Source of the DNA: Prochlorococcus sp. MIT 0801
GTDB taxonomy: Bacteria > Cyanobacteriota > Cyanobacteriia > PCC-6307 > Cyanobiaceae
Reading direction: 5' to 3'
NCBI RefSeq assembly: GCF_000757865.1
Contig: NZ_CP007754.1
Span: 30,001 to 62,000, forward strand
Length of the DNA: 32,000 nucleotides
Both the position numbers and the translations under genes were made by a program. The notes under the pieces were generated by a model that was not told where the DNA came from, searched no databases, and saw only the letters and a list, made by a program, of their open reading frames with translations. This document shows, piece by piece, positions 5,400 through 21,850 of this stretch (its first letter is position 1; each line of letters begins with the position of its first letter).

Positions 5400-6986
5400 A
5401 TGGCTTCAATGATTTCAGCTGAAAAACGTAATCCAGCAATCGTAATTCTCGATTTTGGTTCTCAATATTCAGAATTAATTGCTCGAAGGGTTAGAGAGAC
5501 AGAGGTTTATTCATTAGTTATGAGTTACACAACATCTGCTGACCAATTACGTCATCTCAAGCCTAAGGGAATTATTTTAAGCGGAGGCCCTGGATCTGTT
5601 TACGAAGAAGGTGCTCCATATTGTGATCCAGAGATTTTTAATTTAGGGATTCCTGTTCTTGGTGTTTGTTATGGAATGCAATTAATGGTTCATTTGCTAG
5701 GAGGATCTGTAAAACCTGCTACTGGCAAAGCCGAATATGGAAAGGCTCCTTTAGAAGTTGATGATCCAACAGCGTTATTAACTAATGTTATAAGTGGATC
5801 AACAATGTGGATGAGTCATGCTGATTCAGTTCAGAAATTACCCAATGGATTTGTCAGATTAGCTCATACTTCAAATACTTTAGAGGCAGCTATTGCTTTG
5901 CACGATAAGAGTTTTTATGGAGTGCAATTTCATCCCGAAGTTGTTCATTCCACTCATGGAATGGTTTTAATAAGAAATTTCGTATATTTTATTTGCTCCT
6001 GTGAGCCAGACTGGACAACAAATTTATTTATAGATGAAGCTGTTTCTCAAGTAAAAGAACAGGTAGGCGATAAAAAAGTTTTATTGGCTCTATCTGGTGG
6101 AGTTGATTCATCAACTCTTGCATTTTTATTAAACAAAGCCATAGGACCTCAATTGACGTGCATGTTTATTGATCAAGGTTTTATGAGAAAAGGTGAGCCA
6201 GAATTTTTAATGTCTTTTTTTGATGAGAAGTTCAAAATTAATGTTGAATATATCAATGCCAGAGAAAGATTTATTTCAAAATTAAAAGGAGTAACTGATC
6301 CTGAGCAAAAGCGTAAAATCATAGGTAGAGAATTTATTCGGGTTTTTGAAGAAGAGAGTCTTCGATTGGGACCTTTTGATTACTTGGCTCAAGGTACGCT
6401 TTATCCAGATGTAATTGAAAGTTCTGGAACAAATATTGATCCAAAAACTGGCGAACGAATAGCGGTTAAAATCAAAAGTCATCACAATGTAGGAGGCTTA
6501 CCAAAAGATTTACAATTTAAATTGGTAGAGCCATTGAGACGTTTATTTAAAGATGAAGTCAGAAAAGTTGGTACATCACTGGGATTGCCTGATGAGATTG
6601 TTCGCAGACATCCATTCCCAGGTCCAGGATTGGCTATCAGAATTTTAGGAGAGGTTACTCATGAGAAACTAAATTGTTTAAGGAATGCAGATTTAATTGT
6701 GAGAGAGGAGGTTAATAATGCAGGCTTGTATAACCAGATTTGGCAGGCTTTTGCTGTCTTGTTGCCTGTGTATTCAGTTGGAGTAATGGGAGATCAAAGA
6801 ACTTATGAGTGGCCAGTTGTTGTTCGTTGTGTTTCTAGTGAGGATGGAATGACCGCTGATTGGTCTCGTTTACCGTATGAAGTCTTAGAGAAAATTTCTA
6901 ATCGAATAGTTAACGAAGTCGAGGGAGTTAATAGAGTTGTTTTGGATATAACAAGTAAACCACCAGGAACTATTGAGTGGGAGTAG
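5400..6986 (+). CDS. guaA: GMP synthase (glutamine-hydrolysing)
   Basis: GATase domain ([11 protein letters not shown]), ATP-PPase P-loop (SGGVDSS) and the canonical C-terminus ...PPGTIEWE-stop. Confidence 0.97.
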
Positions 6987-7024
6987 CGGGAACGTCTACT
7001 TTCTAGTGATAACTTGATTTATAT

Positions 7025-7046
7025 GGTTTTACGTAGGTTTTACGTG
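7025..7046 (+). repeat. Iteron pair GGTTTTACGTA GGTTTTACGTG (11-bp period)
   Basis: Direct reading. Confidence 0.9.
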
Positions 7047-7085
7047 AGAGGTATGATGAGGATATAACTAGGGTTTTGAAGTGTC

Positions 7086-7107
7086 AGTTTTACGTGGGTT
7101 TTACGTG
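7086..7107 (+). repeat. Iteron pair AGTTTTACGTG GGTTTTACGTG
   Basis: Direct reading. Confidence 0.9.
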
Positions 7108-7130
7108 GCACATTTTCACCGTCTCCATGA

Positions 7131-7160
7131 AGAAATCGTAGAAAGATGCTTTTCTCTACA
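7131..7160 (+). repeat. Boundary motif AGAAATCGTAGAAAGATGCTTTTCTCTACA (imperfect inverted repeat CGTAGA.A / T.TCTACA)
   Basis: One of six full copies. The others are at 9649-9674, 10486-10518, 12892-12925, 15914-15945 and 18295-18325. Half-sites CGATTTCTCTA(C/T) are at 9727-9738 and 18378-18389. Confidence 0.8.
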
Positions 7161-7284
7161 CAACCAAATTATTTTTATACTTGTGAAGAGGTCTGATTTT
7201 CGCTTTACAAACCCAGAATAGATACATTCCCCTGAAAGTATTAGGATGTTTCTCTTCAAACTTTGCCCAGTTTTGTAAGTTTGT
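7156..7284 (-). pseudogene. Fossil C-terminal tail of a methyltransferase-type TPR gene, in frame directly after the stop of the sulfotransferase gene
   Basis: My translation after the TAA at 7287-7285 gives TNLQNWAKFEEKHPNTFRGMYLFWVCKAKIRP... The genuine C-terminus of the 10557 gene is QTNLQNWAKFEEKHPNTFEGMYQFWVCKS-stop. The track ORF 7116..7331 covers this DNA in a different frame. Confidence 0.75.
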
Positions 7285-9240
7285 TTAGGAGGCGATGTCT
7301 TTGTATTTATCAGTTTGGGTAAGGATTTCAATCGCAGGTTTCAGCATATCTTTATAGTTCTTCCATCCACCAATTGATTTTGAATTGATTGGGGAACGAA
7401 CTTGAACACTACTTGCCGTAGATACTGAGCGTGGATTTAGATGCGGTGTTAAAAATGAATCTTGCCATTTCCACCCTAACCAAGAGATCAAGGATTTAAT
7501 TTCTTCCTTAGGATTGTTGACTAATGAGTCATAATTTAGGTCATATATTTTTGATTTAAATCTATTCTTATATTTTGTCATTAAGTCTTCTTGATCTAAA
7601 TAAACTCTTGTGCAATCAACCAAGCAAGAGGAATAATCATTTCCATTAGCAAAATGTGTTCTGTAAATTGAAAGAATATTATCTAAAGGATTTCTATAGC
7701 AGTGAATAATGTATGCGTTGGGTATATGACAATGAATAATACCTGCGTATTGGTAGTTGTATAACCATTTGTTGGTTGTGATATTCATTTCCGTCTTATT
7801 ATTTACTTTTTTCTTATATAAGTCAGCAAGATTTATATCTTGTTTAGACTTCTTATACTCAAGGAACGATTCCTCAAGAATATTAATTTCACCTAGATCA
7901 TATACATCATTGCTCATACTAAGAATTGATTCCAATAATGTAGAACCACATCTAGGCATTCCTACAATAAAAATACTCTGAGAAGAATTTCTTGATGCTT
8001 TTTTATTAATTTCTTTCTTATCAGACTCAATAAGTAATGCTTTAGATTTATTGAACCTTATTTTAGGTTTAGATGGGTTAATATCAAGTTTTAATTTATT
8101 CGCTAATTTAAGGTATCTAGAACTTTCCTTATAATTTTTTTCCTTATGCAAAATATTTGCTATTGCGAAGTAAATATCAACTTGATTCTTTTGTAATTTA
8201 TTTTTTAAAATATTTTTTGATAAGAGTTGATCCTGCCATATCTTATTCTCATCAGAATAGTTAATTAATGATAGTGAATAGTATGCTTTTGCGAAATCAG
8301 GATTAAGTTCAATTGCTTTGCGGTATGACAATTCTGCGTCTTGTAATTTACCAAGATCTCTCAATACATTCCCCAGATTGGAATGCGCCATTGCGAAATC
8401 AGGTTTGAGTGCAATTGCTTTGCGTTGAGACAATTCTGCATCTTGTAATTTGCCGAGATCTCTCAATACATTCCCCAGATTGGAATGCGCCATTGCGTAA
8501 TCAGGTTTGAGTGCAATTGCTTTGCGGTATGACAATTCTGCATCTTGTAATTTGCCAAGATCATTCAATAAGACTCCCAGATTGGAATGCGCCATTGCGT
8601 AATCAGGTTTGAGTGCAATTGCTTTGCGGTATGACAATTCTGCATCTTGTAATTTGCCAAGATCTCTCAATACATTCCCCAGATTGGAATGCGCCATTGC
8701 GAAATCAGGTTTGAGTGCAATTGCTTTGCGGTATGACAATTCTGCATCTTGTAATTTGCCAAGATCTCTCAATACATTCCCCAGATTGGAATGCGCCATT
8801 GCGTAATCAGGTTTGAGTGCAATTGCTTTGCGGTATGACAATTCTGCATCTTGTAATTTGCCAAGATCTCTCAATACATTCCCCAGATTGGAATGTGCCA
8901 TTACGAAATCAGGTTTGAGTGCAATTGCTTTGCGAGTAGATAATTCTGCTTCTTGTAATTTGCCAAGATCTTTTAATATGATTCCATAATTAGAAAAAAC
9001 TCGGTGATCATTAAAACCTTGATTAATAAAATATTGATAATATTTTATTGCTTCTGAAATATTTCCTTTTACATTAAACTGAATTGCTTGATTAATTATT
9101 TTTTCTTGAGAAAGTTTAGAAATAGTATTGATATTAATAGTAAGATTTTCTTTGATTTCTCCTGAAGCAAATGGAACTGGAAATGTTTTTACTTCAGTGA
9201 CTTTCTTCTTTTCTCCTCCTTCTTGAGTAGAACTATCCAT
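7285..9240 (-). CDS. TPR-repeat protein with a C-terminal sulfotransferase domain
   Basis: About 8 TPR units (AMAHSNLGNVLRDLGKLQDAELSYRKAIALKPDY). The PAPS 5'-phosphosulfate loop is IFIVGMPRCGSTLLESIL, and the C-terminal ...RSPINSKSIGGWKNY is typical of TPR-sulfotransferases. Starts with ATG at 9240. Confidence 0.85.
   Translation of the reverse strand: MDSSTQEGGEKKKVTEVKTFPVPFASGEIKENLTININTISKLSQEKIINQAIQFNVKGNISEAIKYYQYFINQGFNDHRVFSNYGIILKDLGKLQEAELSTRKAIALKPDFVMAHSNLGNVLRDLGKLQDAELSYRKAIALKPDYAMAHSNLGNVLRDLGKLQDAELSYRKAIALKPDFAMAHSNLGNVLRDLGKLQDAELSYRKAIALKPDYAMAHSNLGVLLNDLGKLQDAELSYRKAIALKPDYAMAHSNLGNVLRDLGKLQDAELSQRKAIALKPDFAMAHSNLGNVLRDLGKLQDAELSYRKAIELNPDFAKAYYSLSLINYSDENKIWQDQLLSKNILKNKLQKNQVDIYFAIANILHKEKNYKESSRYLKLANKLKLDINPSKPKIRFNKSKALLIESDKKEINKKASRNSSQSIFIVGMPRCGSTLLESILSMSNDVYDLGEINILEESFLEYKKSKQDINLADLYKKKVNNKTEMNITTNKWLYNYQYAGIIHCHIPNAYIIHCYRNPLDNILSIYRTHFANGNDYSSCLVDCTRVYLDQEDLMTKYKNRFKSKIYDLNYDSLVNNPKEEIKSLISWLGWKWQDSFLTPHLNPRSVSTASSVQVRSPINSKSIGGWKNYKDMLKPAIEILTQTDKYKDIAS
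8293..9006 (-). repeat. Tandem 102-bp (34-codon) TPR coding repeats: 7 units, six of them nearly identical at nucleotide level
   Basis: Visible periodicity. Adjacent units around 8609-8806 are almost base-for-base identical. Confidence 0.9.
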
Positions 9241-9419
9241 CTTCTCTTATCTTTTCTCTCTTTTGGTTTTTCCGATTTTACTACTAATTTCAATCCTGAT
9301 TAATTCTTTCTGAAATCATTTATCATTTATAGAGCGAGAATAAAAAGTAGGTCTGTATATTATTTCGCTACAAAAGCATCATTGAGTATATTTTTTCTTG
9401 TAATCCATTGGCACGACTG

Positions 9420-9441
9420 GGGTTTACGTGGGTTTTACGTG
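9420..9441 (+). repeat. Iteron pair GGGTTTACGTG GGTTTTACGTG
   Basis: Direct reading. It lies inside a 56-bp segment that is absent from the paralogous region at 18170-18190. Confidence 0.9.
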
Positions 9442-9503
9442 CTATGTATAAAGATGAAATCCGTTGGTATGACTGGGGTTTAGGGGTGCTCTTTTGCAAA
9501 GGA

Positions 9504-9520
9504 CTATTGAGTGGGAATAG
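9504..9520 (+). repeat. att-like copy of the guaA 3' end (CTATTGAGTGGGAATAG)
   Basis: Identical to the 13044 copy and one synonymous difference from guaA 6970-6986. It is followed by TTTAGGGCAGTCAAAC, a flank shared with the 18211 copy. Confidence 0.85.
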
Positions 9521-9558
9521 TTTAGGGCAGTCAAACCCAGTCCACCACTCAAAGTGCT

Positions 9559-9580
9559 TGTTCCACGTGAGTTCCACGTA
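9559..9580 (+). repeat. Iteron pair, CC variant: TGTTCCACGTG AGTTCCACGTA
   Basis: Direct reading. A single further copy, AGTTCCACGTG, is at 9619-9629. Confidence 0.85.
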
Positions 9581-9784
9581 GAAATTTAAGTGACAGAGTG
9601 ACAGGGATTTGAAGAGTAAGTTCCACGTGTCACCTTCTCTGTAAAGACATCGTAGATAGTTCATTTTCTCTACACCTATTATTTTTAGTCAAATTACGAT
9701 GGTTCTTAATTTTGAAAATCAATTGACGATTTCTCTACGGATTTAAAAAATTAATCAGACCCAAAAAGTACATTGCATGAAAAA

Positions 9785-9808
9785 GGGGGCGAGATTTTGG
9801 TCGCCCCC
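9785..9808 (-). terminator. GC-rich hairpin GGGGGCGA-loop-TCGCCCCC with a U-tract on the minus strand; it opens a ~120-nt conserved module (copy 1)
   Basis: 8-bp perfect stem. The minus-strand reading is followed by TTTTTTC. It is paralogous to 13328-13351 with a compensatory G:C to A:T change. Confidence 0.55.
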
Positions 9809-9956
9809 TTTGAGTTCAGCACTCATAATTCCAACTGAACTTTCCATCCGTACTAACCAACTTTGACCTACTGGAACGAAAGTGCTAGAACTCCTGATTT
9901 CTTTTTAATTCTTCTAAGATTCAAATTCAATCGTTAGAAGTACCTGATTAGGTCTT

Positions 9957-10148
9957 ATGGCAAAAACTGAAAATGATCTTGATATTTACTATGCAGTTGG
10001 GAATGCCAATACTTCTAGGCAAGAAACTGAGATCGGAGAAATTATTAAAAAACGAAATTCATTGGGATGGAAATTAGTCTCTACCAGTACTGCTGTGGTT
10101 GATACGTCTAATCAATTCTCTAATTTGTATCTTTTTTGGGAAAAATAA
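9957..10148 (+). CDS. Hypothetical small protein
   Basis: 63-aa ORF downstream of the hairpin module. The GWKLVS...LYLFWEK pattern is loosely like small alpha/beta DUF proteins. Size is within chance expectation. Confidence 0.3.
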   Translation: MAKTENDLDIYYAVGNANTSRQETEIGEIIKKRNSLGWKLVSTSTAVVDTSNQFSNLYLFWEK

Positions 10149-10295
10149 TATGAGTAAGGGAAAAGAGAAATTCAACGTGACGCAGGGTATGACTCTTTTG
10201 CTGCTAAAAAAACTTTCTTTGCCTGCAAACGTAGTTTTTCTAATGATTCTCTTTATTACTAACCCATCAAACAAGATTGGTTATGAGGATGAGTA

Positions 10296-10362
10296 GGCAC
10301 AACAAAACCTGACCTAAAGCAGTTCTTTTTGAAGATCAGTCGCAAGTGTTTCCTTGTTCCTT
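10296..10362 (-). ncRNA. Decayed Yfr2-like sRNA remnant
   Basis: The plus strand GGCACAACAAAACCTGACC...GATCAGTCGCAAGTGTTTCCTTGTTCC is colinear with 14821-14890. The terminator stem is degraded and the GUGAGGAG 5' motif is missing. Confidence 0.4.
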
Positions 10363-10556
10363 ATTGACTACTTTTTTAAGATGACTACTTATTCCTTTTC
10401 CAGTATTTCACTTCGTCCTCCTTTGAAAAGTCCATATGATAAAGAACAAAAGTTTATTTCTGCTCTATGCAACTATGCATATTTTCGTAGAGAAATCGTT
10501 GAAAGGTGTTTTTCTCTGAAATATTCAATATTTTTATACTTGTTAATTAGTCAGAT

Positions 10557-12737
10557 TTACGATTTACAAACCCAGAACTGATACATACCTTCGAAGGTAT
10601 TGGGATGTTTTTCTTCAAACTTTGCCCAGTTTTGTAAGTTCGTTTGTTTTTTATCTTCTGGGAAATATTGCTCATAGATCGATTTAATTTGTTTTTGAAG
10701 CAAGAATCCAAGAAACTTTAATTCATTAGATTTGAGAATTTCTTGTAGTTGCTTAATGTTGAATCTATGTTCCTGTGCATGAAAACAAAGATCACGGCAA
10801 GAAGAAAGTGTATAGAAATCAGAACTCTTTGTTAGAGAGTTTATTTCTGGTGTTTTTCCGGAAAAGATAGTTTCTCTAAAATTACGAATATGGTCCTCAT
10901 TTGTTTGAAGTTTTTTGCTGGCAATATAATTCCTTGCTTTAATAATATTTTGTCTTGCTAATTCGCTATATAAACCCAATTTAAGAAATCCATTAGTTTT
11001 TAAAACCCCTAATAATGCTTTCAAACCTTTTGAGGGTTCATCCATATGATGTAAAACCCCTGAACATAAAATGATATCAAATTTTTCCTCTAGTAAATTA
11101 ACTTCTAAGATATCCATTTGAATCAATTTAACATTATTGATTTCAAGTTCTTTTATTTTTCTTTGGGCATAAGAAAGACTAGACAAACTTAAATCTATGC
11201 CAGTAATCGTAGCATGGTTATAAATTTTCGCATGTAAAATCTGTTGACCTGTTCCACACCCAGCAATTAGAACTTTTAATTGACTATTTTCAGATTTGAA
11301 ATTGATAGAACTAGGTTTTATTTCATTATTTATTGCCTGTGTAATAGATATCTTTTGACTTTCTAAATTATTCCCATACCTCCATCTAGGATATGGATTT
11401 TTCTCATATTGTGATTTTACTTTTCGAGAAATATAATCATTTATTCTACCTAGTTTTTTTATATTCTTAGACAAGTCAATTTCTTCTAGAGGTTCTGATA
11501 TTTGTATGTTTATTAATTCTTTAAAACTTTGATTTGAAGAATTAAAAGATTTCAAAGATGGTATCCTATCCAGGAGTTTATATAAAGAAAAATAACAAGA
11601 TAAAATTGAAATATTTATCTCATTTAATTCATTATTTTGGCATCTTTTGATGATATTATTTAGAGATATATTTTCTTCTTCAGTTAATGAGAAAATATAT
11701 TCGTTAAGGAAGCATTGTTTTCCTAAAGTAATAATAAATTGTAATTCATAGTAATTTATTTCTTTTTTATTCTTTGCAATTTTAATGCATAAATACTTTC
11801 TTAAATTCGTTAGCAATTTCTCAAATCTAATATCCTGAAAAGTTATTTTTTTAAGGGCATTGATTATGACTTTATTATTAATTATTAATTCTATCTGGGA
11901 ACATTCTGAATCTAATTTTTCTAGTTTACTGATTATTTCATTGTTATATACATAGTTAAATGAGTTTATTAATTCTTTATGAGATATATCATTTCTTTCT
12001 AGTAGAAGATTTAATATAGTTTTCACTTTTGATTTGCTTAACTTTGACGTATCAAAATCTCTAAGAAATTCCGTTATGAAGGAATAAATATTAGGATATG
12101 TTGGATTAATTTTAATTATTTGCAAGTAAGAATCAAATGCTTCTTCTAACTTGCCAACATCTGTCAATATTATCCCCAGATTTAAATGTGCTTCTGCGAA
12201 ATTAGGATTCAGTTCAATTGCTTTGAGGTATGAGATTTCTGCGTCTTGTAATTTGCCAAGATCTGTCAATGTTATTCCCAGATTGTAATGTGCTTCTGCG
12301 AAATCAGGTTTAATATCAATTGCTTTTCGGTGGCATAATTCTGCATCTTTTAATTTGCCAAGATCTCTCAATGTTATTCCTAGATTGGAACGTGCTTCTG
12401 CGAAATCAGGTTTAATATCAATTGCTTTTCGGTGGCATAATTCCGCATCTTTTAATTTCCCAAGATCTCTCAATATCACTCCATAATTAGAAAAAACTTT
12501 GTGATCCTTATAACCTTGATTAATAAAAAGTTGATAATATTTTACCGCTTCTGAAACGTTTCCCTGTAAATGAAACTGGATTGCTTGATTAATGATTTGT
12601 TCTTTAGATGGTTTAGAAGAAGTATTTGTATTAATAGTAAGATTTTCTTTGATTTTTCCTAAATCAAATGCAACTGGGAATGTTTTCACCTCGGACATCT
12701 TCTTCTTTCCTTCATCTTCTTGACTAGAAAGATCCAT
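10557..12737 (-). CDS. TPR-repeat protein with a C-terminal class-I SAM-dependent methyltransferase domain
   Basis: 4 TPR units. Motif I is VLIAGCGTGQQ and motif II/III is DIILCSGVLHHMDEP. The track starts at a TTG at 12776. I prefer the ATG at 12737 (MDLSSQEDEGKKK...), which aligns with the paralog start MDSSTQEGGEKKK. Confidence 0.85.
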   Translation of the reverse strand: MDLSSQEDEGKKKMSEVKTFPVAFDLGKIKENLTINTNTSSKPSKEQIINQAIQFHLQGNVSEAVKYYQLFINQGYKDHKVFSNYGVILRDLGKLKDAELCHRKAIDIKPDFAEARSNLGITLRDLGKLKDAELCHRKAIDIKPDFAEAHYNLGITLTDLGKLQDAEISYLKAIELNPNFAEAHLNLGIILTDVGKLEEAFDSYLQIIKINPTYPNIYSFITEFLRDFDTSKLSKSKVKTILNLLLERNDISHKELINSFNYVYNNEIISKLEKLDSECSQIELIINNKVIINALKKITFQDIRFEKLLTNLRKYLCIKIAKNKKEINYYELQFIITLGKQCFLNEYIFSLTEEENISLNNIIKRCQNNELNEINISILSCYFSLYKLLDRIPSLKSFNSSNQSFKELINIQISEPLEEIDLSKNIKKLGRINDYISRKVKSQYEKNPYPRWRYGNNLESQKISITQAINNEIKPSSINFKSENSQLKVLIAGCGTGQQILHAKIYNHATITGIDLSLSSLSYAQRKIKELEINNVKLIQMDILEVNLLEEKFDIILCSGVLHHMDEPSKGLKALLGVLKTNGFLKLGLYSELARQNIIKARNYIASKKLQTNEDHIRNFRETIFSGKTPEINSLTKSSDFYTLSSCRDLCFHAQEHRFNIKQLQEILKSNELKFLGFLLQKQIKSIYEQYFPEDKKQTNLQNWAKFEEKHPNTFEGMYQFWVCKS
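12096..12503 (-). repeat. Tandem 102-bp TPR coding repeats (4 units)
   Basis: Periodicity in both DNA and protein (DLGKLKDAELCHRKAIDIKPDFAEA occurs twice, almost identically). Confidence 0.85.
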
Positions 12738-12970
12738 CTTCTCTCCTGGTTCTTTTGACTTTACTACTAATCTCAACTCTTATGACTTCTTTCTGAAATC
12801 ATATACCACCTATAGAGCAAGAATAAAAAGTAGATCTCTATATTATTTCTTTACGTATATGACCAGCTGACAAAAACATAGATGGCCACATAAATCGTAG
12901 AGAAATAATATACTACTTCTCTACATTTTATAGTTCCACACGAAAAAACCTTAAAAGTTATGGCATTTTC

Positions 12971-12992
12971 ATTTTCACACCATTTCCACACC
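12971..12992 (+). repeat. Iteron-like pair ATTTTCACACC ATTTCCACACC
   Basis: Direct reading; 11-bp period. A single copy, AGTTCCACACG, is at 12932-12942. Confidence 0.6.
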
Positions 12993-12995
12993 GCA

Positions 12996-13030
12996 TATTA
13001 AGTGGTGCAAACCATATGCACCACTTAATA
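12996..13030. repeat. Perfect 14-bp inverted repeat TATTAAGTGGTGCA-N7-TGCACCACTTAATA
   Basis: Direct reading. It lies 13 bp left of the att-like copy at 13044. Confidence 0.85.
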
Positions 13031-13098
13031 ATTTCCATAGTTGCTATTGAGTGGGAATAGCAGAAACGTCTACTTTCCAGTGATAATTTGATTTATAT

Positions 13099-13120
13099 GG
13101 TTTTACGTAGGTTTTACATG
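13099..13120 (+). repeat. Iteron pair GGTTTTACGTA GGTTTTACATG
   Basis: Direct reading. Confidence 0.9.
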
Positions 13121-13158
13121 AGAGGATAGAGAACCTATGGCTAGGTTTTGGATGGGTC

Positions 13159-13180
13159 TGTTTTACGTAGGCTTTACGTG
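13159..13180 (+). repeat. Iteron pair TGTTTTACGTA GGCTTTACGTG
   Basis: Direct reading. Confidence 0.9.
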
Positions 13181-13327
13181 CTATTTGTAAAGATGAACCC
13201 CTTTGTTTGGTGCTTTAATTCGATCCATTTTGACTCTCTTTGTCGGTTTAGTGATGGGGACAATACTAATACAAATGTACTATATTTATCTATTAGGTCA
13301 AGTCACTTATTTTGTTCCATTAAAGAA

Positions 13328-13351
13328 GGGAGCGAGATTTTGGTCGCTCCC
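13328..13351 (-). terminator. Hairpin GGGAGCGA-loop-TCGCTCCC, copy 2 of the conserved hairpin module
   Basis: 8-bp perfect stem with the same GATTTTGG loop as copy 1. The downstream ~100 nt partly align with 9809-9900. Confidence 0.5.
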
Positions 13352-13720
13352 TCTGAGTCAAGCACTCAACTGACTGAACTTAAATTTTCATCCTTTATTT
13401 ACTTTGACCCACAGAAGGTGCTGTGACTTCTAATTCATTAATTAAAAATCCAGATCAGGTAGAACATGAGAAAAAACTCCTGTTTAACCAACCACCCAAT
13501 AATCTTTGTGTTTTCTGAGAATGAGTTTGAGAAGATCGGGAATCATTCGTTTTACCTCAATATTTCAACTTTAAGTAATCAGGAACAAGGTGTGGAAGTG
13601 TTCCAAGTGAGATTAAAAAGACAGAAAACCAAAGAAAGATCGATGAAAGAGTATTCGACCCATTGGATCTGAAACTACGTGTTGTTTGCATAATTAGACC
13701 TCCTGTTAGTTCAATGTTTT

Positions 13721-13906
13721 TTAGTAGTCCATTGAGCAGTTGCCAAACTGCAAGCATTCATTCTCATAATCGACCTCATCAAAATCAGCTTCATAATTCG
13801 AAACCAGATCGCACCAATCGTTCCCTTGCATCGGAACTCCACAAGATTTCGAGAATGTTTCTTTTACGTCTTCGATTGCATGTTTAAAAGGATTACCGCA
13901 TGCCAT
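13721..13906 (-). CDS. Hypothetical small acidic Cys-containing protein (61 aa)
   Basis: A strong Shine-Dalgarno site (AGGAGG) ends 6 nt upstream of the ATG (minus-strand reading CTATTAGGAGGTCAAACCATG). The protein is MACGNPFKHAIEDV...ECLQFGNCSMDY. Confidence 0.5.
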   Translation of the reverse strand: MACGNPFKHAIEDVKETFSKSCGVPMQGNDWCDLVSNYEADFDEVDYENECLQFGNCSMDY

Positions 13907-14361
13907 GGTTTGACCTCCTAATAGTGCCTTGATTTATATCTACTCCTCCTAATAAAAAATATCTATAGGACAAAAACCCTAAAGTATTAACTCTGATTAC
14001 CCTACAAAGAAAAAACCCTGCAACTAATCAGGGGTTTGGGTTGTTCCGACCATTGCAGAGACCGCACGAAAGGTGACTCTGTTCACATCAGGAGGTGTGA
14101 GATGTCTCCTTAGAGTCAATGTACATTTCCCTTTTTTTAATATCTTCGAGAGTGCTATTACTCTTAATTTATATTCAATACCACTAATCAAAAATATCTA
14201 TGCAGAGAATCCAAATGTAGAAATACCTTGGTGTTCTCACCCCTATGAATTTCCATTTAATAGGAGTAGAACAAGATCAGGAGTCAAAGCACTTCAATTT
14301 CTGGGGTGATGGACTCGAAGGGGAGAAATACATGCCCCCTTACTTCATTTGAGGTATCTCT

Positions 14362-14532
14362 ATGACTAGAAAAAGAGACAAGATTTGGACAGCAATCATT
14401 GCAACTAGACAATGGTTCACCAAACTTTTTACTAGTGAGGCAGATGCTTTAGTTGATAACTTCGGAAATAATCCACCACCAGAGATAGGACCTCAATCTT
14501 ATTCGGGAGATATTCACGATAAAGGAGACTGA
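14362..14532 (+). CDS. Hypothetical 56-aa protein (not in the ORF track because it is under 60 aa)
   Basis: My translation is MTRKRDKIWTAIIATRQWFTKLFTSEADALVDNFGNNPPPEIGPQSYSGDIHDKGD. GAGG ends 7 nt upstream of the ATG, and the hairpin at 14560-14593 follows. Confidence 0.3.
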   Translation: MTRKRDKIWTAIIATRQWFTKLFTSEADALVDNFGNNPPPEIGPQSYSGDIHDKGD

Positions 14533-14559
14533 TTGAATTCATTTAAATTGCATTAAGAA

Positions 14560-14634
14560 AGGGACCCTGCTGCTTCAGCGACCTTGAGTCCCTCTCTTCA
14601 TTGACAGAACGAATTTTGGTAAGGAGTTGTTCTG
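14560..14634. ncRNA. Hairpin plus stem-loop module, variant copy: stem CAGAAC/GTTCTG with loop GGTAAGGAGTT (plus strand) or AACTCCTTACC (minus strand)
   Basis: Colinear with 15011-15083 and 21351-21421. The strand of expression is undetermined. Confidence 0.4.
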
Positions 14635-14824
14635 CTTTTCCTTTTCTAATCAATTTCACAAAGGTTCTGCATCCGAAAAAATTCCTAATTAGATATCGTC
14701 CTCACTGTTTCCGAATGGGTTGTATCTGATATCAAAAATCAAAACTACTGCTGTGCTTAAAAGCAGTAATCCAAAAACAACTTGGGGAGGTGGAAATATC
14801 ATTAGACCACTCTAGAAAAGGCAC

Positions 14825-14920
14825 AAAAAAACCGCCCAGTTCTGTTAGGGCGGTTTCTTTGTGAGATCAGGCGCAAGTGTTTCCTTGTTTCCACTGCGGA
14901 GGATCTCAACTCCTCACAAA
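14825..14920 (-). ncRNA. Yfr2-family-like sRNA
   Basis: Minus-strand reading: a TAAGTT -10-like box, then UGUGAGGAGUUGAGAUCCUCCGCAGUGGAAACAAGGAAACACUUGCGCCUGAUCUCAC, then the terminator AACCGCCC-N10-GGGCGGUUUUUUU. Length is about 95 nt. The GUGAGGAGU seed and GGAAACA-rich loop match my recollection of Yfr2-5. Confidence 0.6.
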
Positions 14921-15010
14921 ATAAACTTAATCAACATGACTCTTAGAAGGAATCCTGAGTATTTGAGTTCTTGAACTGTCACATATGACAATTCTTGTAC
15001 ATAAGGTATT

Positions 15011-15126
15011 AAAAAAGCACCCCACTTAAGCGAAGTTGAGTGCCTTTTTATAACAGAACTATTGTGTGAGGAGTTATTCTGTTATTTCATTTCTACTCCT
15101 GCATGCACCTTTTGTCACTACTAAAA
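15011..15126. ncRNA. Hairpin plus stem-loop module: stem AACAGAA/TTCTGTT with loop carrying TGTGTGAGGAGTT (plus strand) or AACTCCTCACACA (minus strand)
   Basis: A bidirectional-looking terminator hairpin at 15017-15043 is flanked by A- and T-runs. A conserved TTTTGTCACTACTAAAA box is at 15110-15126. Read on the minus strand, it contains the exact ACUCCUCACAC motif known from Yfr1. Confidence 0.45.
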
Positions 15127-15269
15127 AGATAAACTGATGAGAACCTACAAAATAGGAATAAGAACAAAGGATCCAAGAATAAAAAGTGGCGACCTTGCAC
15201 GAGTTCTATCAATCATTAGATCCTGAATCAAATAAACTTTCTGAGTGGATTTGTGAAAAATAGAAGATT

Positions 15270-15632
15270 ATGGATGAAACTTGGTTAAAAGAACTCAATC
15301 AAAGAAATATTGAGTTGGAAGGAGAAGATAGGGCGAAATGGGATGGTGCAACTGTCTCTGTTTCCTTCTCAGTTTTAAACAAATTAAGTCAGGCAGAACA
15401 AGGGAAATTTGAGATTACTGAATTCAAAAGAGCAACGAATGAAATTGAGCATTGGGCACGAGTAGAAGAAATATGCGATTTCTTTGGAGTTGTAGACCCT
15501 GATCTAGCAGGAGATGTCTATGTCAGAAAGTTCAAAAACTTAACTGTAGATGAAGAGAGTAAATGGATGGATTTAAAAGATATTAATGACGAGATGCCTG
15601 AGGGTTTTGGCGTAAAAATCGATCGGAGTTAA
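15270..15632 (+). CDS. Hypothetical acidic protein (120 aa)
   Basis: An ORF of a length unlikely by chance at this GC content. It is D/E-rich and followed by an imperfect hairpin at 15633-15658. Confidence 0.5.
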   Translation: MDETWLKELNQRNIELEGEDRAKWDGATVSVSFSVLNKLSQAEQGKFEITEFKRATNEIEHWARVEEICDFFGVVDPDLAGDVYVRKFKNLTVDEESKWMDLKDINDEMPEGFGVKIDRS

Positions 15633-15686
15633 GGGAAGGCAAATAATTGTTTGCTCCCTTGTCAATGAAAATATTTGCTAATTGAC

Positions 15687-15708
15687 GGTTCCACGTAAGG
15701 TCCATGTG
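15687..15708 (+). repeat. Iteron pair, decayed CC variant: GGTTCCACGTA AGGTCCATGTG
   Basis: Direct reading. Confidence 0.7.
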
Positions 15709-15764
15709 GTAAAACAGGGGAGCAAATCCCTATATACCACTAAATAATTCAAGTAGGTGCTGTG

Positions 15765-15781
15765 CTATTGGGTAGGAATAA
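15765..15781 (+). repeat. Decayed att-like copy (CTATTGGGTAGGAATAA)
   Basis: 14 of 17 bases match the guaA end. It sits in the same position relative to the downstream degenerate iterons and the CGTAGAAAG motif as the other copies. Confidence 0.55.
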
Positions 15782-15913
15782 TACTGACTACTAAAACGTA
15801 GTTATAGACTTAAAATATATATTCCCCGTGAGTTCTCTGTGAACGTGAACTGAGGAAGTGACAAGGGTTTTCAAGTGCTCTGTTACTCGTGAGACTTTGT
15901 CACCTACTCTGCA

Positions 15914-15945
15914 GAGAAATCGTAGAAAGATGGTTTTTCTCTACA
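15914..15945 (+). repeat. Boundary motif GAGAAATCGTAGAAAGATGGTTTTTCTCTACA
   Basis: Direct reading. It holds the same position relative to the TPR-gene 3' tail as the copies at 7131 and 10486. Confidence 0.8.
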
Positions 15946-15973
15946 AAATTAAATATTTTATGGTGTGGACTTT

Positions 15974-16084
15974 TCAATTTTCCGTATTACACGCCCAGAA
16001 TTGAAACATTCCTATGAAGGTCGTGGGGTGTTGCTCTTCATGTTTTGGTCACGTTTGTAAGTTTGTTTGCGTCTTGTCTTTTCC
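15974..16084 (-). pseudogene. Decayed fossil of the methyltransferase-type C-terminal tail, in frame after the stop of the 16085 gene
   Basis: My translation after the TAA at 16087-16085 gives GKDKTQTNLQT-stop-PKHEEQHPTTFIGMFQFWACNTEN-stop. The intact tail in the 10557 gene is KKQTNLQNWAKFEEKHPNTFEGMYQFWVCKS. Confidence 0.65.
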
Positions 16085-18007
16085 TTAAATTCCTATTAAT
16101 TTCACCGCAACTTGCTTCGTCATATAGGAGATCGCCAAAACTTCATAACTTAAATTATTATTAGAGCAAAATTCATTGAGTGCTTTATATTCATCCTGCT
16201 CCCAATTTTTATTAATAATAAACTCATCAAATATTAAAATTGTATCTTTATCTATGACAGACTTTGAATAGTTCAAGGCACAAATAGTAGAAGAATATAG
16301 ATCGGCATCAAAATTGATTAGTGATGCGATAGGTCTAGGTTTGGAATAAAAAGTTGGAAGTGTTTCTTCAAATTTACCTGCTATAAATGTTCCGCCATCA
16401 ATGTTGGGAATGACTCCATCTGCTGAATAAAATCCTTGTTTCTCTTCATGCCAATCTTCTGGTAAGCCTTGAAAAGTATCAAATCCATAACCTTTTTTGA
16501 AGGTATTAATTAAGTACTGAAAGGATTCACCTCGCCAAACACCAAACTCATAGAAAGGGCGATCTGTTTTGCTTTTATTAATCATACTGTCAAATAATGC
16601 CCATCTATGAAAAAACAATTCAGGTAACTTTGGTAAAGTAGAAACCCATTTTAGGGAACGGATTGTAGGATGATCTTTATAAATTGATTGTATAAGATTA
16701 TCAAATAATGATTGATAACCTTGATGTAATTTTAGACCACTTAGAGAGAGTTTTGCTTCTAAATGATTTTCATCTATTTTCAAGCATTGATTAATCCTTT
16801 CTTCTGCTTCCTCAATAGTATTGGCTAATCCATATAAATTCCAAGCAGCTTCAGCGAAATCAGGTTTAAGTTGAATTGCTTTGCGAAATGACAATTCTGC
16901 TTCTTGTAATTTACCAAGATCACTCAATATGATGCCCAGATTGGAATGCGCCTCTGCGTAATCAGGATTAATTTCAATTGCTTTGCGATATGAGATTTCT
17001 GCTTCTTGTAATTTGCCAATATTATTTAATATGTTTCCCATATTTAGATGCGCCATTGCGAAATCAGGTTTAAGTTGAATTGCTTTGCGAAATGACGATT
17101 CTGCTTCTTGCAATTTGCCAAGATCTTTCAATATGTTTCCTAGATTGGAATGCGCCTCTGCGAAATCAGGATTAATTTCAATTGCTTTGCGATATGAGAT
17201 TTCTGCTTCTTGGAATTTGCAAAGATCTCTCGAAATGGTTCCCAGATTGTAATGCGCCTCTGCGAAATCAGGATTAATTTCAATTGCTTTGCGAAATGAC
17301 AATTCTGCTTCTTGCAATTTGCCAAGATCTCTCGAAATGGTTCCCAGATTGTAATGCGCCTCTGCGAAATCAGGATTAATTTCAATTGCTTTGCGAAATG
17401 ACAATTCTGCTTCTTGCAATTTGCCAAGATCTTTCAATATGTTTCCTAGATTGGAATGCGCCTCTGCGAAATCAGGATTAATTTCAATTGCTTTGCGATA
17501 TGAGATTTCTGCTTCTTGCAATTTGCCAAGATCTTTCAATATGACTCCCAGATTGGAATGCGCCATAGCGCAATTAGGATTAATTTCAATTGCTTTACGA
17601 GTAGATAATTCTGCTTCTTGTAATTTGCCAACATTTTTTAATATGTCTCCCAAATTTACATACGCATCTCTGTACTCAGGATTAATTTCAATTGCTTTGC
17701 GAAATGACAATTCTGCTTCTTGTAATTTGCCTAGAGTTTTTAATATGACTCCATAATTACAAAAAACTTTGTGGTGAGAGAAACCTTCATTAATGAAATA
17801 TTGATAATATTTTTCTGCTTCTGAAATGTTTCCTTGTGAATGAAACTTAAATGCTTGATTTATTATTTGTTCTTTAGAAGGTTTCGAAGGCGTGTTAGTG
17901 GAAATAGAGATATTCTCTTTAATTTCTCCTAAACTAAATGGAACTGGGAATGTTGTTATTTCAGTGACTTTTTTTTTAACCTCTTTTATTGGACCGGATT
18001 CTTCCAC
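16085..18007 (-). CDS. TPR-repeat protein with a C-terminal TylF/macrocin-O-methyltransferase-like domain
   Basis: 9 TPR units. The C-terminal FYEFGVWRGESF...GFDTFQGLPEDW...LINFDADLYSSTICALN...ILIFDEF matches the TylF-family pattern. The start codon at 18007 is GTG, at the position aligned with the ATG of the paralogs. Confidence 0.8.
   Translation of the reverse strand: MEESGPIKEVKKKVTEITTFPVPFSLGEIKENISISTNTPSKPSKEQIINQAFKFHSQGNISEAEKYYQYFINEGFSHHKVFCNYGVILKTLGKLQEAELSFRKAIEINPEYRDAYVNLGDILKNVGKLQEAELSTRKAIEINPNCAMAHSNLGVILKDLGKLQEAEISYRKAIEINPDFAEAHSNLGNILKDLGKLQEAELSFRKAIEINPDFAEAHYNLGTISRDLGKLQEAELSFRKAIEINPDFAEAHYNLGTISRDLCKFQEAEISYRKAIEINPDFAEAHSNLGNILKDLGKLQEAESSFRKAIQLKPDFAMAHLNMGNILNNIGKLQEAEISYRKAIEINPDYAEAHSNLGIILSDLGKLQEAELSFRKAIQLKPDFAEAAWNLYGLANTIEEAEERINQCLKIDENHLEAKLSLSGLKLHQGYQSLFDNLIQSIYKDHPTIRSLKWVSTLPKLPELFFHRWALFDSMINKSKTDRPFYEFGVWRGESFQYLINTFKKGYGFDTFQGLPEDWHEEKQGFYSADGVIPNIDGGTFIAGKFEETLPTFYSKPRPIASLINFDADLYSSTICALNYSKSVIDKDTILIFDEFIINKNWEQDEYKALNEFCSNNNLSYEVLAISYMTKQVAVKLIGI
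16856..17773 (-). repeat. Tandem 102-bp TPR coding repeats (9 units, several nearly identical)
   Basis: Periodicity. For example, AEAHYNLGTISRDL.K.QEAE.S.RKAIEINPDF occurs twice in succession. Confidence 0.9.
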
Positions 18008-18210
18008 TATGCCGTTTTTATCTTTTGATTACTGGACTTTACTACATACTCCAATCCTTGTTGATTCTTTCTGAAATTATTTTGGAACTGATAGAGCGAG
18101 AAGAAAATTAGGTCTCTATATTATTTCTCTATAAAAGTTTCATTGAGTGTATATCCCCTTGTAATTTGTTGGTATGACTTGGTTTTAGGGGGTCTTCTTT
18201 TGCGAAAACC

Positions 18211-18226
18211 TTTTGAGAGGGTATAG
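18211..18226 (+). repeat. Decayed att-like copy (TTTTGAGAGGGTATAG)
   Basis: 13 of 16 bases match. The surrounding ~250 bp (18121-18390) is colinear with 9361-9740, including the identical TTTAGGGCAGTCAAAC flank. Confidence 0.6.
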
Positions 18227-18294
18227 TTTAGGGCAGTCAAACGTTGTCCACTACTCAAAATATACTTCCACTTCCACTTGTCACCGTTTCTATT

Positions 18295-18325
18295 GAGAAA
18301 TCGTAGAAAGTCGTTTTTCTCTACA
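18295..18325 (+). repeat. Boundary motif GAGAAATCGTAGAAAGTCGTTTTTCTCTACA
   Basis: Direct reading. Confidence 0.8.
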
Positions 18326-18539
18326 TCTACTATTTTTAGTCAAATCTATAGGGATCTAAATTTGGAACATTAATTGACGATTTCTCTATATATTTTTCTG
18401 TATTCACTACTTAAAAAGCACAAAAAAACACCCCTTTGGATGCTCTCTTAGCACAGAACAATGTATTCTAATCAAGGATAAATTATGGCGAGGCTTCAAA
18501 AAAGACGTGATCATTTAAATAAGAGATAGTTAGGGTCCA

Positions 18540-19268
18540 ATGTCATTTGAAGTTACTTACAACGGGGATATTCAATACGTTAAGGTTTTCTACTCAACTG
18601 AAAAAACGAGAGCTGGAAAATATTATGGCGAGTTTTATAAAAAAATGGATGCAATAGCTAGTGACTTAAAACGCCTTAAACAGGAACTTGATGAAGATAG
18701 TGAAAAGGCAGCGAAGATTGCTAAAGATGCTGCTAATAAAGCACTTTCTGAAAGATTTGGCTCACTTCGATACATTATTGATGAGCATATATGGGATGAA
18801 GACATGGTTATCAGCAAGATTCTTGATGACAGAAAAGAAGAGATGTTGGCATTAGCACAGAAGACTTTTAATAATGAAGTTCTTCTTGAAGAGGATGGGG
18901 CAGAGGAATACAAAATTCACTTGGCTGAAGGAACAGTCGAAGTTGATGGTGAAAGTGTAGAGACATCGATAATGGAGTTTTTTGATTCTGACGACTACCA
19001 CGTATCGAATGAGGCAAAACTAGAAAAATTGGAACAATTGGATTGGTTTATAATCTGGTCGAGAACCGAAGCAGGAGAGTTTAAGACAGAGGGTGGACTA
19101 CACGAGGGGAATTTTTCATCAAAGGACTTAAATATGGAAAATTGTTTGCTTACTTACCGAGATTTACCTCTTGTTACTCCCTCTAATGGCACGGACATCT
19201 TCAGTAATGAACTTGAAATTCATTTTGTAGATGAAACTAGGGCAACCCTTGAGATCAGTGAAGCTTAA
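18540..19268 (+). CDS. Hypothetical acidic protein (242 aa)
   Basis: A long ORF, very unlikely by chance. It is strongly D/E-rich and I recognise no motif. Confidence 0.6.
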   Translation: MSFEVTYNGDIQYVKVFYSTEKTRAGKYYGEFYKKMDAIASDLKRLKQELDEDSEKAAKIAKDAANKALSERFGSLRYIIDEHIWDEDMVISKILDDRKEEMLALAQKTFNNEVLLEEDGAEEYKIHLAEGTVEVDGESVETSIMEFFDSDDYHVSNEAKLEKLEQLDWFIIWSRTEAGEFKTEGGLHEGNFSSKDLNMENCLLTYRDLPLVTPSNGTDIFSNELEIHFVDETRATLEISEA

Positions 19269-19572
19269 GTGGCATTTTTATGAATTTGATGGTCTACTAA
19301 TTCCCAACTATTGCAAATTAGTTCTCTTCGAGTTCTGTTGCAATATCTAAATTGATTTCTTTTGTGTCTTTAATTTTGTGGGACTTCCTTCAATAGTCTT
19401 TCAGTAAAGTTGACTGAATAAAGGTGGGAAATTAGTTGTTGATTTTGGATCAGGGTAAATAACACTCAAAAATCTCTTTGTGAATAAACTAATCAACCTG
19501 TAATCGTTGGTCATGCCTCTAGTCATAGTTCGTTCATTCATCCGTCTCTTGGATAATTCAAAAGATCCAAAA

Positions 19573-19604
19573 AGCACCTTTTTACTAGTATTGAACAAGG
19601 TGCT
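19573..19604. terminator. Hairpin AGCACC-N20-GGTGCT flanked by A- and T-runs
   Basis: Direct reading. The following CAAGAATGCTTTCGTGAGTGAC resembles a decayed copy of the ACAGAACGATTTGGTGAGGAG module. Confidence 0.4.
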
Positions 19605-19715
19605 TTTTGCTCAAGAATGCTTTCGTGAGTGACAATCTTAGTACAGATACACTCTTTCGGCGTTTAGTGTCGTCAAGTAATTTGAGGAAAAATCAGAAAG
19701 ATTTGCCTAACTTGT

Positions 19716-20540: not shown

Positions 20541-20802
20541 TAATGATATTCAAATCAAAAACGGAAAATAATTTACTGAATATGAAGCTATAGATTTAAT
20601 GGTGTCATTGAGTGGAACTGACGCAAATTCAGAAAAGGAAATGGAGATGTTGCCATAGCTCTCTATCGCAGAAAGATTGAAAGGAGTATTTGGACGAATA
20701 CTGGATAAACTATGAAATAAAAAATGGGATAAAAAATAAGTGCATCACATATCTGTTATCAGTTGATTAGTGGAATAACCCTTTAAATTTGTTGATTGAA
20801 AA

Positions 20803-21042: not shown

Positions 21043-21164
21043 AAGTGATTTGGTTAATGTTTAAATTTAATTGATTTGGTGGTTTAATTATTTCATAAAA
21101 ATGTCGTGAATACCGTTCTACTTGCTTGTTTTGGATGTTGTTTTTTCTAAATTTAAATAATGTC

Positions 21165-21836: not shown

Positions 21837-21850
21837 TGCTTTTATTTGAG

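Follow-up and report, generated by a model that had tools for sequence, protein, structure and literature searches.

Probable serial addition of recombinase-less gene cassettes to the 3' end of guaA in Prochlorococcus by site-specific recombination

How can a genomic island grow at a single site when nothing inside it appears able to move it? The question is raised by the region downstream of guaA, the gene for GMP synthase, in Prochlorococcus sp. MIT 0801. The window analysed here is a 32,000-nt stretch of this genome (contig NZ_CP007754.1, positions 30,001 to 62,000 of the forward strand; coordinates below are counted from its first letter), and it was compared with guaA loci of other picocyanobacteria. 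A first-pass annotation had noticed that the last 17 bp of guaA recur downstream and had proposed serial integration at this protein-gene end, with no integrase present. That overall interpretation is supported. At a probability of about 0.72, we read the interval between guaA and the gene for penicillin-binding protein 2 (PBP2) as an additive island, to which a recombinase acting in trans would have added recombinase-less cassettes, using the guaA 3' end for site-specific recombination.

The starting point is the core repeat itself. The whole window was searched with the 17-mer CTATTGAGTGGGAATAG, tolerating up to 3 mismatches. The core, CTATT-GAGTGGG-ARTAG, is present in five copies between 6970 and 18226, all in direct orientation on the plus strand as the annotation had claimed. 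Its form CTATTGAGTGGGARTAG includes GAGTGGGA as its centre, and its 17 bp are built as a 5-7-5 inverted repeat (CTATT-GAGTGGG-AATAG), with 5-bp inverted ends around a 7-bp centre.

5400-6986, plus strand: guaA (GMP synthase), an open reading frame (ORF) ending TIEWE-stop, the last 17 nt of which are the attachment (att) core; Pfam GATase/GMP_synt_C
6970-6986, plus strand: core copy 1, attL-like, CTATT-GAGTGGG-AGTAG, with 1 mismatch (guaA end GAG TAG)
9504-9520, plus strand: core copy 2, exact
13044-13060, plus strand: core copy 3, exact
15765-15781, plus strand: core copy 4, decayed, 3 mismatches
18210-18226, plus strand: core copy 5, decayed, 3 mismatches

By chance, 0.05 matches would be expected, and none of 100 dinucleotide-preserving shuffles attained five; a chance repeat is rejected on this count. 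The two exact copies lie where they had been reported, and so does decayed copy 4, while copy 5 begins at 18210 and not at 18211. A direct repeat of about 137 bp described around copies 1 and 3 also holds up: 6970-7051 and 13044-13125 are 93% identical over 82 nt, with 6 mismatches, and the likeness extends to 7107 and 13180. Copies 2 and 5 do share the right flank TTTAGGGCAGTCAAAC. No tRNA or transfer-messenger RNA (tmRNA) was found in the window by ARAGORN.

Whether these repeats bound anything was evident from other strains. A GuaA scan of species-representative genomes gave 80 loci, and 25 Prochlorococcus-type loci, the window among them, were analysed; the window's GuaA is 96-97% identical in amino acids to that of Prochlorococcus single-amplified genomes (SAGs) and 95% identical to that of MIT 1012. 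Each of the 25 loci has one to five cores downstream of guaA, and 16 of them at least one internal copy. The cores keep to this place: the 213 kb downstream of guaA hold 37, the 268 kb upstream hold one, and the opposite strand has none. A dispersed repeat, the alternative that the annotation had named, is rejected by this localisation. In 10 of 12 close relatives, the alignment to the window ends at 6984-6986. It resumes at 9503 in six relatives (L003, L006-L009 and L013), which are without the 2.5-kb TPR1 segment (6987-9503) and have the guaA core joined straight to the flank of copy 2, an alignment picture of the attL/attB/attR type. This homology gap, from 6986 to 9503, therefore makes the TPR1 segment an insertion with copies 1 and 2 at its ends. 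L013 has the sequence found to the right of copy 3, but after a core with a helicase-nuclease gene, not TPR2, on its left. The sister clade includes an empty site (L255, complete genome CP138965.1), where guaA is followed by 372 bp and then by the 203-aa gene of the island border, and a locus with one TPR-sulfotransferase cassette between two cores (L256, CP114779.1). Segment content is thus polymorphic across strains and breaks at the 17-mer, as the annotation had anticipated. The repeats are real and locus-specific, and they mark insertion/deletion boundaries between strains.

The annotation had further held that older copies were pushed rightward and decayed. Copies 4 and 5 are indeed decayed, but an ordering by age is weakly supported, because cassette order varies between strains and insertion is possible at any copy. 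A TPR3-like cassette leads the array in L010, is the third one in L007 and L012, and occupies the fourth interval between cores in the window. Identity inside the island is a mosaic, with 97% beside 79%, and several segments exceed the similarity of the core genome; against MIT 1012, the stretch 9731-10355 is 97% identical and the core genome 84%, and 13239-14600 is 92% identical to L013. MIT 1012 (L008) itself holds a decayed internal core at 14727-14743, CTATTGAGTAGAAGTAA, with 4 mismatches and a type-B right arm behind it. At the threshold of three mismatches this locus was scored as single-copy, so the core counts are lower bounds.

Beyond these genomes, extra cores occur in two marine Synechococcus loci (L034 and L036), with the same architecture and other repeat sequences, and none were found in about 45 guaA loci of Cyanobium and other high-GC, mostly freshwater taxa. 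In one of the two, Synechococcus AG-683-C23, a cassette at 10805-11530 of L036 carries an AT-rich TPR lipoprotein-like gene within a region of 54% GC, which suggests that it came from a lower-GC donor. Arrays also appear on metagenome contigs of 28-31% GC, recovered by a scan for the left arm type LF1 joined to the core, and high-light-clade Prochlorococcus therefore appear to carry arrays too.

If cassettes enter at the core, where within it does the exchange occur? The last six bases, which are the final Glu codon and the stop codon, co-vary with the family of the right flank (permutation p = 5e-5, in a statistic that ignores shared ancestry), and GAATAG precedes 13 of the 14 type-A flanks. 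For the first eleven bases there is no such link to the right-flank family (p = 0.78), nor is the tail tied to the family of the left flank (p = 0.39), and left and right families combine freely. The co-variation of the tail with the right flank therefore places the exchange inside ATTGAGTGGG, to the left of core position 12. This also bears out the earlier claim that each element supplies a replacement gene end, the last Glu and stop codons going with the right flank and not with the left. Many internal, non-coding cores are perfect, next to arms with about 73-79% identity inside a family.

The window has three large segments, each with a paralogous minus-strand gene that fuses tetratricopeptide repeats (TPR) to a C-terminal enzyme domain of its own, and each with repeated flanks (D6-D8), a feature that the first-pass annotation had passed over. 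Their layout is the same: core, right arm of about 110 nt, the conserved GTAGA...TCTAC element D8, gene, left arm and next core. Between guaA and the last core flank, the units are as follows.

6987-7160, plus strand: right arm of cassette 1, type B; 11-mers GTTTTACGTAG twice, at 7026-7046 and 7087-7107; D8 at 7113-7160
7285-9240, minus strand: cargo 1, TPR-sulfotransferase fusion (Pfam TPR_1 4e-60, Sulfotransfer_3 4e-26)
9343-9503, plus strand: left arm of cassette 1, type LF4; cognate 11-mer pair GGTTTACGTGGGTTTTACGTG at 9421-9441
9521-9674, plus strand: right arm of type A (TTTAGGGCAGTCAAACCCAGTCCACCACTCAAA); 11-mer pair at 9560-9581; D8 copy at 9627-9674
9675-10358, plus strand: small-ORF segment, ending in a truncated Cyano-1 RNA copy at 10319-10358
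10359-10520, plus strand: ghost junction, the sixth; right-arm remnant TATTGACTAC at 10362; D8 copy at 10473-10520; core deleted
10557-12776, minus strand: cargo 2, fusion of TPR with a class I S-adenosylmethionine-dependent methyltransferase (Pfam Methyltransf_31 1e-18)
12972-13043, plus strand: left arm, LF2-like; 11-mer pair TTTTCACACCATTTCCACACC at 12972-12992, 51 nt ahead of the core
13061-13180, plus strand: right arm of type B, 93% identical to 6987-7051; 11-mer pairs at 13100-13120 and 13160-13180
13181-15689, plus strand: small-ORF segment; Cyano-1 RNA at 14859-14923 (minus strand); ORF 15270-15632
15690-15764, plus strand: left arm, LF2-like; 11-mer pair at 15690-15709, 55 nt ahead of the core
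15782-15944, plus strand: right arm of type C; palindrome ACTACtaaaacGTAGT; 11-mer pair at 15821-15842; D8 copy at 15897-15944
16085-18007, minus strand: cargo 3, fusion of TPR with a TylF-like O-methyltransferase (Pfam TPR_1 3e-90; C-terminal part TylF 9e-7)
18104-18209, plus strand: left arm of type LF4, 78% identical to 9343-9431
18227-18325, plus strand: right arm of type A and D8 copy (18278-18325); repeat families D8, D9 and D15

The arms follow a rule of spacing. Across the set, a tandem 11-mer (at least 9 of 11 positions matching) occurs in 23 of 58 right flanks, and 21 of these 23 pairs start 37-39 nt past the core, as in cassette 1 of the window (39 nt). Shuffled right flanks contain such a pair in 2% of cases, and periods of 9, 10, 12 and 13 give none. 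On the left side, 20 of the 33 internal copies have an 11-mer pair, ending 51-54, 62-64 or 72-78 nt before the core, positions that step by about 11 nt or one helical turn; the 25 guaA coding flanks are all without such a pair. The sequence of the 11-mer differs by cassette family (GTTTTACGTAG, GTTCCACGTGA, ACTTCACCGTG, ACTTCCACACC and GTTTGTCACGG, with AACTACCCCGT in Synechococcus), and the two arms of one cassette resemble each other more than arms of different cassettes do (mean best 16-mer match 12.8 versus 11.5, p = 2e-6). Examples of matched arms are found in L025, L036, L256 and cassette 1 of the window, where the left-arm repeat agrees with its own right-arm repeat at 15 of 16 positions. 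The arrangement of left arm, core and right arm looks like the layout of an attP site. The type-A right arm is also the flank 3' of guaA in most relatives. Units of 128-188 bp between two cores have just a right and a left arm with one 11-mer pair common to both, and these "empty" units would be most simply explained as scars of cargo deletion through recombination between matched arm repeats.

Two further features of the arms were noted. The motif CCACCACTCAA, the reverse complement of the core centre TTGAGTGG, lies in type-A right arms and LF2 left arms about 22-35 nt from the core (window 9542-9552 and 18248-18258, and the LF2 arms of L002 and L004). As both arm types hold it, a single-stranded core can pair with either arm in 9-bp stems. 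When six junctions were folded, z-scores ranged from -0.6 to -3.5, with only two below -2.5, and folding was not consistently better than in shuffles. Element D8 was not called by a simple terminator scan, and we therefore use "hairpin-like element" for it as a description only.

What do the cassettes carry, and do they carry an enzyme? The set examined comprises the 33 internal core copies of the 25 loci and the 23 metagenome contigs, with cassettes of about 1.4-6.5 kb and one to four genes. TPR-fusion proteins dominate, with 28 ORFs in a single similarity cluster. Other inter-core cargo includes DUF4214, a DUF4379 zinc-finger protein, an acyltransferase, HNH proteins, C-5 (Dcm) DNA methylases, a Z1/SNF2-type ATPase, DUF1651 proteins, a K+ channel with DUF4236 and an AAA_11/AAA_12 helicase-nuclease, and one small serine recombinase. 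In all 25 loci, the first gene after guaA is cargo, with no tyrosine integrase adjacent. The metagenome scan for LF1 and core added 23 further cassettes, again with no integrase among the Pfam families listed, which are the best 25 of 37 and the best 25 of 30 families in the alignment-based scans. The statement that no integrase is present thus extends to the 25 loci and 23 contigs for those families. Likewise, Pfam searches of the ORFs agree with the annotation that no recombinase, primase or other replication gene lies between 6987 and 22147, and find none elsewhere in the window; a replication module (primase, helicase, polymerase) has no Pfam match there.

From these comparisons we infer the integration event itself. 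A circular cassette would carry a single attP-like site, with left arm, core and right arm, and would recombine with the core of guaA or with any that the array already holds. Insertion would regenerate Ile-Glu-Trp-Glu-stop for guaA, with the last Glu codon and the stop codon supplied by the cassette, and would leave a second core on the far side. Later reshuffling would then include deletions, recombination between matched arms that leaves 128-bp "empty" units, homologous exchange between strains, and decay. The recombinase would act in trans and is most likely of the tyrosine type; this type is favoured because of the 5-7-5 core, the arm-type repeats and the central GAGTGGGA, which is the crossover of the GIsul2 integrase.

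GIsul2, a genomic island of Proteobacteria, is indeed the nearest point of comparison for the target. It inserts in the guaA 3' end at GAGTGGGA, a proven crossover site, with att sites of 19 bp, and its tyrosine integrase also excises and integrates the integrase-less CR2-sul2 unit by way of a third att site; in Aeromonas caviae, where CR2-sul2-type units have inserted into the attR core of an island at guaA, the cores are perfectly restored (PMC9376610). The guaA 3' end as target, a core containing GAGTGGGA duplicated at both ends, and short att sites (19 bp in GIsul2, 17 bp here) are thus common to both, and an integrase-less, att-bounded unit moved by the integrase of the island has been shown for GIsul2. 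The identity of the core centre with the GIsul2 8-mer fits the mapping of the crossover and favours a tyrosine recombinase. However, GIsul2 has its own integrase beside guaA along with transfer and replication genes, whereas no integrase was found in any array here, and the cassettes are far smaller, have conserved tandem-11-mer arms and live in picocyanobacterial hosts.

For the host, the comparison is with tycheposons, which encode an integrase, either a tyrosine recombinase of the tycheposon clade or a large serine recombinase, and usually a replication module, use seven tRNA/tmRNA targets and leave partial tRNA duplications of about 40 bp (bioRxiv 10.1101/2020.12.28.424599). Both systems share the Prochlorococcus host, successive integrations at one site split by partial copies of the target, older elements that degenerate inward, and cargo of the defence and niche-adaptation type. 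Serial growth at one site is seen at guaA as well, with up to five cores per locus, decayed copies 4 and 5 and one ghost junction. The differences are a protein-coding target in place of a tRNA and the absence of an element integrase or replication gene among those found. guaA is not mentioned as a target in the text or the supplementary tables examined of the tycheposon preprint (bioRxiv 10.1101/2020.12.28.424599). The same source does describe a cryptic group, YR_6, with "no tRNA, ~20bp repeats" and a small serine recombinase as signature gene, lists two recombinases, YR_Pro and SSR_Pro, as Prochlorococcus core genes in its supplement, and records mitomycin-induced hypothetical genes and an annotated "replicative DNA helicase" in the guaA-PBP2 interval of MIT0604. 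YR_Pro, SSR_Pro and the integrases of such non-tRNA "cryptic" elements are candidates for the trans-acting recombinase.

Three other kinds of element deserve comparison. At the 3' end of fda in Streptococcus thermophilus, the cis-mobilizable elements (CIMEs) related to ICESt1 and ICESt3 are att-flanked, stand in tandem and are without recombination or transfer genes. They are thought to be mobilised by the integrase of a related element and to derive from conjugative elements by deletion, and there are few per site. The guaA cassettes are like them in being att-flanked at a protein-gene 3' end and without recombination or transfer genes, but up to five of them, all small, make up an array, and their arms have a dedicated architecture; we know of no conjugative partner in Prochlorococcus. 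Integrons and clusters of attC sites lacking integron integrases (CALINs), the latter being cassette arrays with no integron integrase nearby, also have small, mostly single-gene cassettes at one platform, each with a recombination site and none bearing the recombinase. In some arms here the core recurs in inverse form, CCACTCAA facing TTGAGTGG. Unlike integrons, the guaA arrays have no GTTRRRY core and no attC-type imperfect palindrome (R''-L''...L'-R'), their cassettes bring their own flanks and point either way, and no intI was seen and none lies beside guaA. Lastly, elements dependent on Xer recombinases (integrative mobile elements exploiting Xer, IMEX, and pdif modules) use a dif-like 28-bp site of 11-6-11, and the core here has 17 bp in a 5-7-5 arrangement.

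Several results weigh against trans-acting integration as the explanation of this island. Tyrosine integrases are absent among the Pfam families listed for 126 ORFs of the 25 loci and 31 ORFs of the 23 metagenome contigs, and this absence is itself less than certain, as a weak integrase fragment could be hidden below those families. Nor was an excised circle or attP form found. The annotation had proposed looking for recombinase-linked or excised forms, and none appeared in IMG/VR, isolated phages or metagenome contigs; nothing that came up in IMG/VR or among isolated phages was like picocyanobacteria. In IMG/VR, the 17-mer has 51 matches, mostly unrelated bacterial guaA ends at provirus borders and others at chance level, with no picocyanobacterial attP, the 11-mer pair matches only in unrelated phages of 50% GC, and the two matches of D8 both lie within coding regions and are attributable to chance. 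Two junctions compared by blastn with 50,697 isolated phage genomes gave no match, and no integrase-bearing tandem partner was found in the 25 loci, the 23 contigs or IMG/VR. At the empty site L255, the flank 3' of guaA is already similar to the right arm of a cassette. This makes the cassette arms relatives of the ancestral attB flank, and the origin may be duplicative. The boundary at 10358 is a plain deletion and no core junction. The co-variation of the core tail falls to p = 0.21 for internal copies alone, in statistics that ignore shared ancestry, and the conservation of internal cores is partly a selection effect, because the copies were found by core similarity.

The IMG/VR matches hold observations of their own. 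About 30 predicted proviruses of unrelated bacteria (L084-L128, in E. coli-like taxa of 49% GC and in taxa of 25-30% GC) start or end within about 60-130 nt of the guaA stop, which suggests that phages and islands make wide use of the guaA 3' end as a target; in L124, the core is flanked by long direct repeats in an attP-like manner. In the 50% GC phages L133, L135, L139, L142 and L143, tandem TAAGTTTCACG adjoins the DnaA-box-like TTATCCACA in an origin-like setting, a caution that tandem 11-mers may also act as iterons. The sequence CCCWGTCCACCACTCA belongs to a conserved intergenic element of about 25 cyanomyovirus-like contigs, its total matches being near chance. This element (L160 6169-6184 and about 25 other contigs, GC 0.37-0.42) reads ...GAGTCTCACTGAGAA CCCWGTCCACCACTCAA NCAAAAACC... 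and has 16-18 nt in common with cassette arms; it matched no Rfam family and no tRNA, and the arm likeness could be chance.

The rival that survives best is also an unlikely one. It holds that the array is a fossil, built up long ago by site-specific recombination whose recombinase has since been lost, and that the present polymorphism comes from deletions and from homologous recombination that uses guaA, the conserved arms and the core genes on the right. The missing integrase near the arrays suits this account, as do the decayed copies 4 and 5, the plain deletion at 10358 and the mosaic of 97% beside 79% identity; arms of 100-160 nt suffice for homologous exchange, and recombination between matched arm repeats explains the 128-bp "empty" units. 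It fits less well with internal cores that are perfect next to arms about 73-79% identical, even with the caveat of the selection effect, or with a spacing of 37-39 nt and an 11-nt phasing that are kept in Prochlorococcus and Synechococcus despite differing sequences. The arms of each cassette are still matched, and unrelated cargo lies between the same kinds of ends.

Could the small serine recombinase, of the resolvase/invertase type, instead shuffle, invert or excise cassettes at the cores? Enzymes of 190 aa with a C-terminal helix-turn-helix (HTH) usually resolve or invert and do not integrate, which speaks against this one, as it is of that type. It is the sole recombinase inside a matched-arm cassette (L025 15544-16125; Pfam Resolvase 1e-21), and its family has 1835 homologues in marine metagenomes. 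In 3 of 5 loci looked up, it lies near argJ, which the gene order of MIT0604 places about 35 kb from guaA, and locus L247 unites a rearranged guaA/argJ island with an inverted core; a small serine recombinase is also listed as a core gene in the Hackl preprint (bioRxiv 10.1101/2020.12.28.424599). Yet its usual place beside argJ has no flanking cores or arms, the core with arm-type repeats resembles a tyrosine-integrase attP, and GAGTGGGA is a tyrosine-integrase site in GIsul2 (PMC9376610). We regard this role as improbable and the enzyme as a minor candidate. The module that contains it is conserved (L025, L246-L250), with a recombinase of 193 aa (Resolvase and HTH) followed by four or five small ORFs. 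Its usual position is 3-4.5 kb from argJ, in one case it sits within a guaA cassette, and it may be what the Hackl tables list as "SSR". In L247 (SAG contig QCAH01000002.1; 8296-8313 and 17078-20026), the argJ-side island abuts a reversed guaA array, which indicates a large inversion. Between argJ and the recombinase gene, this locus has a unit of left arm, core, right arm and D8 that is opposite to the guaA array and has one extra G in its core.

That unequal crossing-over merely amplified the guaA end, its downstream sequence and a TPR gene, which then diverged with no mobile element involved, would account for the three window segments with their paralogous TPR genes and similar 5' and 3' flanks and for right arms that resemble the native flank of L255, but it is highly improbable in view of non-TPR cargo between cores in many strains, the variable cassette order, the free combination of left and right flank families, the different enzymatic domains of the three TPR proteins and the low-GC TPR cassette inside a 54% GC Synechococcus genome, and in its pure form it is rejected by the varied cargo.

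With trans-acting integration at guaA retained as the preferred reading, the remainder of the window can be placed around it. The right end of the island and its border contain the following.

18326-22147, plus strand: older island content without recognisable cores, common to L003 and L008; within it ORF 18540-19268, K+ channel 19716-20540, Cyano-1 RNA 21198-21262 (minus strand) and ORF 21519-21836
22148-25008, plus strand: conserved right island border, with the 203-aa gene (22148), a 124-aa gene and PBP2 (23173); syntenic in 14 loci

Beyond PBP2 follow flavoproteins and then alaS, from 29500 to the end of the window, and the gene order to the right of the island is identical in the supplementary gene table for MIT0604 (Hackl preprint, bioRxiv 10.1101/2020.12.28.424599). 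The genes ahead of guaA are cbiD, an aminotransferase, DUF6554, an HNH protein and an epimerase-like protein. The ghost junction at 10358/10362 had been missed in the first-pass annotation; here, the right-arm sequence TATTGACTAC abuts the truncated copy of Cyano-1 RNA. This RNA (RF01701) has two island copies (64 and 46 bits) besides the truncated third, whose truncation point is the rearrangement boundary, and locus L003 has a full copy where that of the window is truncated. Within the TPR genes, 102-nt units (34-aa TPR) at 8187-9100, 12088-12600 and 16746-17870 have 80-95% DNA identity within and between genes, which suggests recent repeat expansion or gene conversion. Due to this similarity, public short-read assemblies of MIT 0801 break there (contigs L001 and L251), and searches for exact window proteins gave only such fragments from this strain.

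What does such a locus mean for Prochlorococcus? Its kind is already known: guaA-targeting islands, tandem accretion, att-flanked elements without integrase and additive islands in Prochlorococcus have all been described. The combination of a protein-gene target in picocyanobacteria, tiny cassettes with phased arms, and arrays without an integrase is not described in the literature searched. To our knowledge, Prochlorococcus is without plasmids, conjugation and most prophages, and has a very large pangenome that is concentrated in islands. Tycheposons are the only mechanism of island building there that we know to have been described, and the guaA locus is a second class of site, at the end of a protein-coding gene. 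The spread of arrays over low-light genomes, high-light-like low-GC contigs and marine Synechococcus points to a recombinase acting in trans, and a pool of very small mobile units is implied that would be invisible to integrase-based screens. The donor site (left arm, core, right arm) and the target (guaA end) are now defined to base resolution. The TPR-fused sulfo- and methyltransferases, DUF4214, methylases and defence ATPases suggest that the platform diversifies surface modification and phage defence. A bolder and doubtful extension casts the guaA end as a chromosomal platform for cassettes that relies on a recombinase encoded by the host, for which YR_Pro and SSR_Pro would be the candidates. 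If this were true, Prochlorococcus and some marine Synechococcus would own an integron-like means of acquisition, in which cassettes bearing a matched-arm attP but no recombinase are captured, stacked, lost and exchanged, perhaps by way of vesicles, without any self-mobile element.

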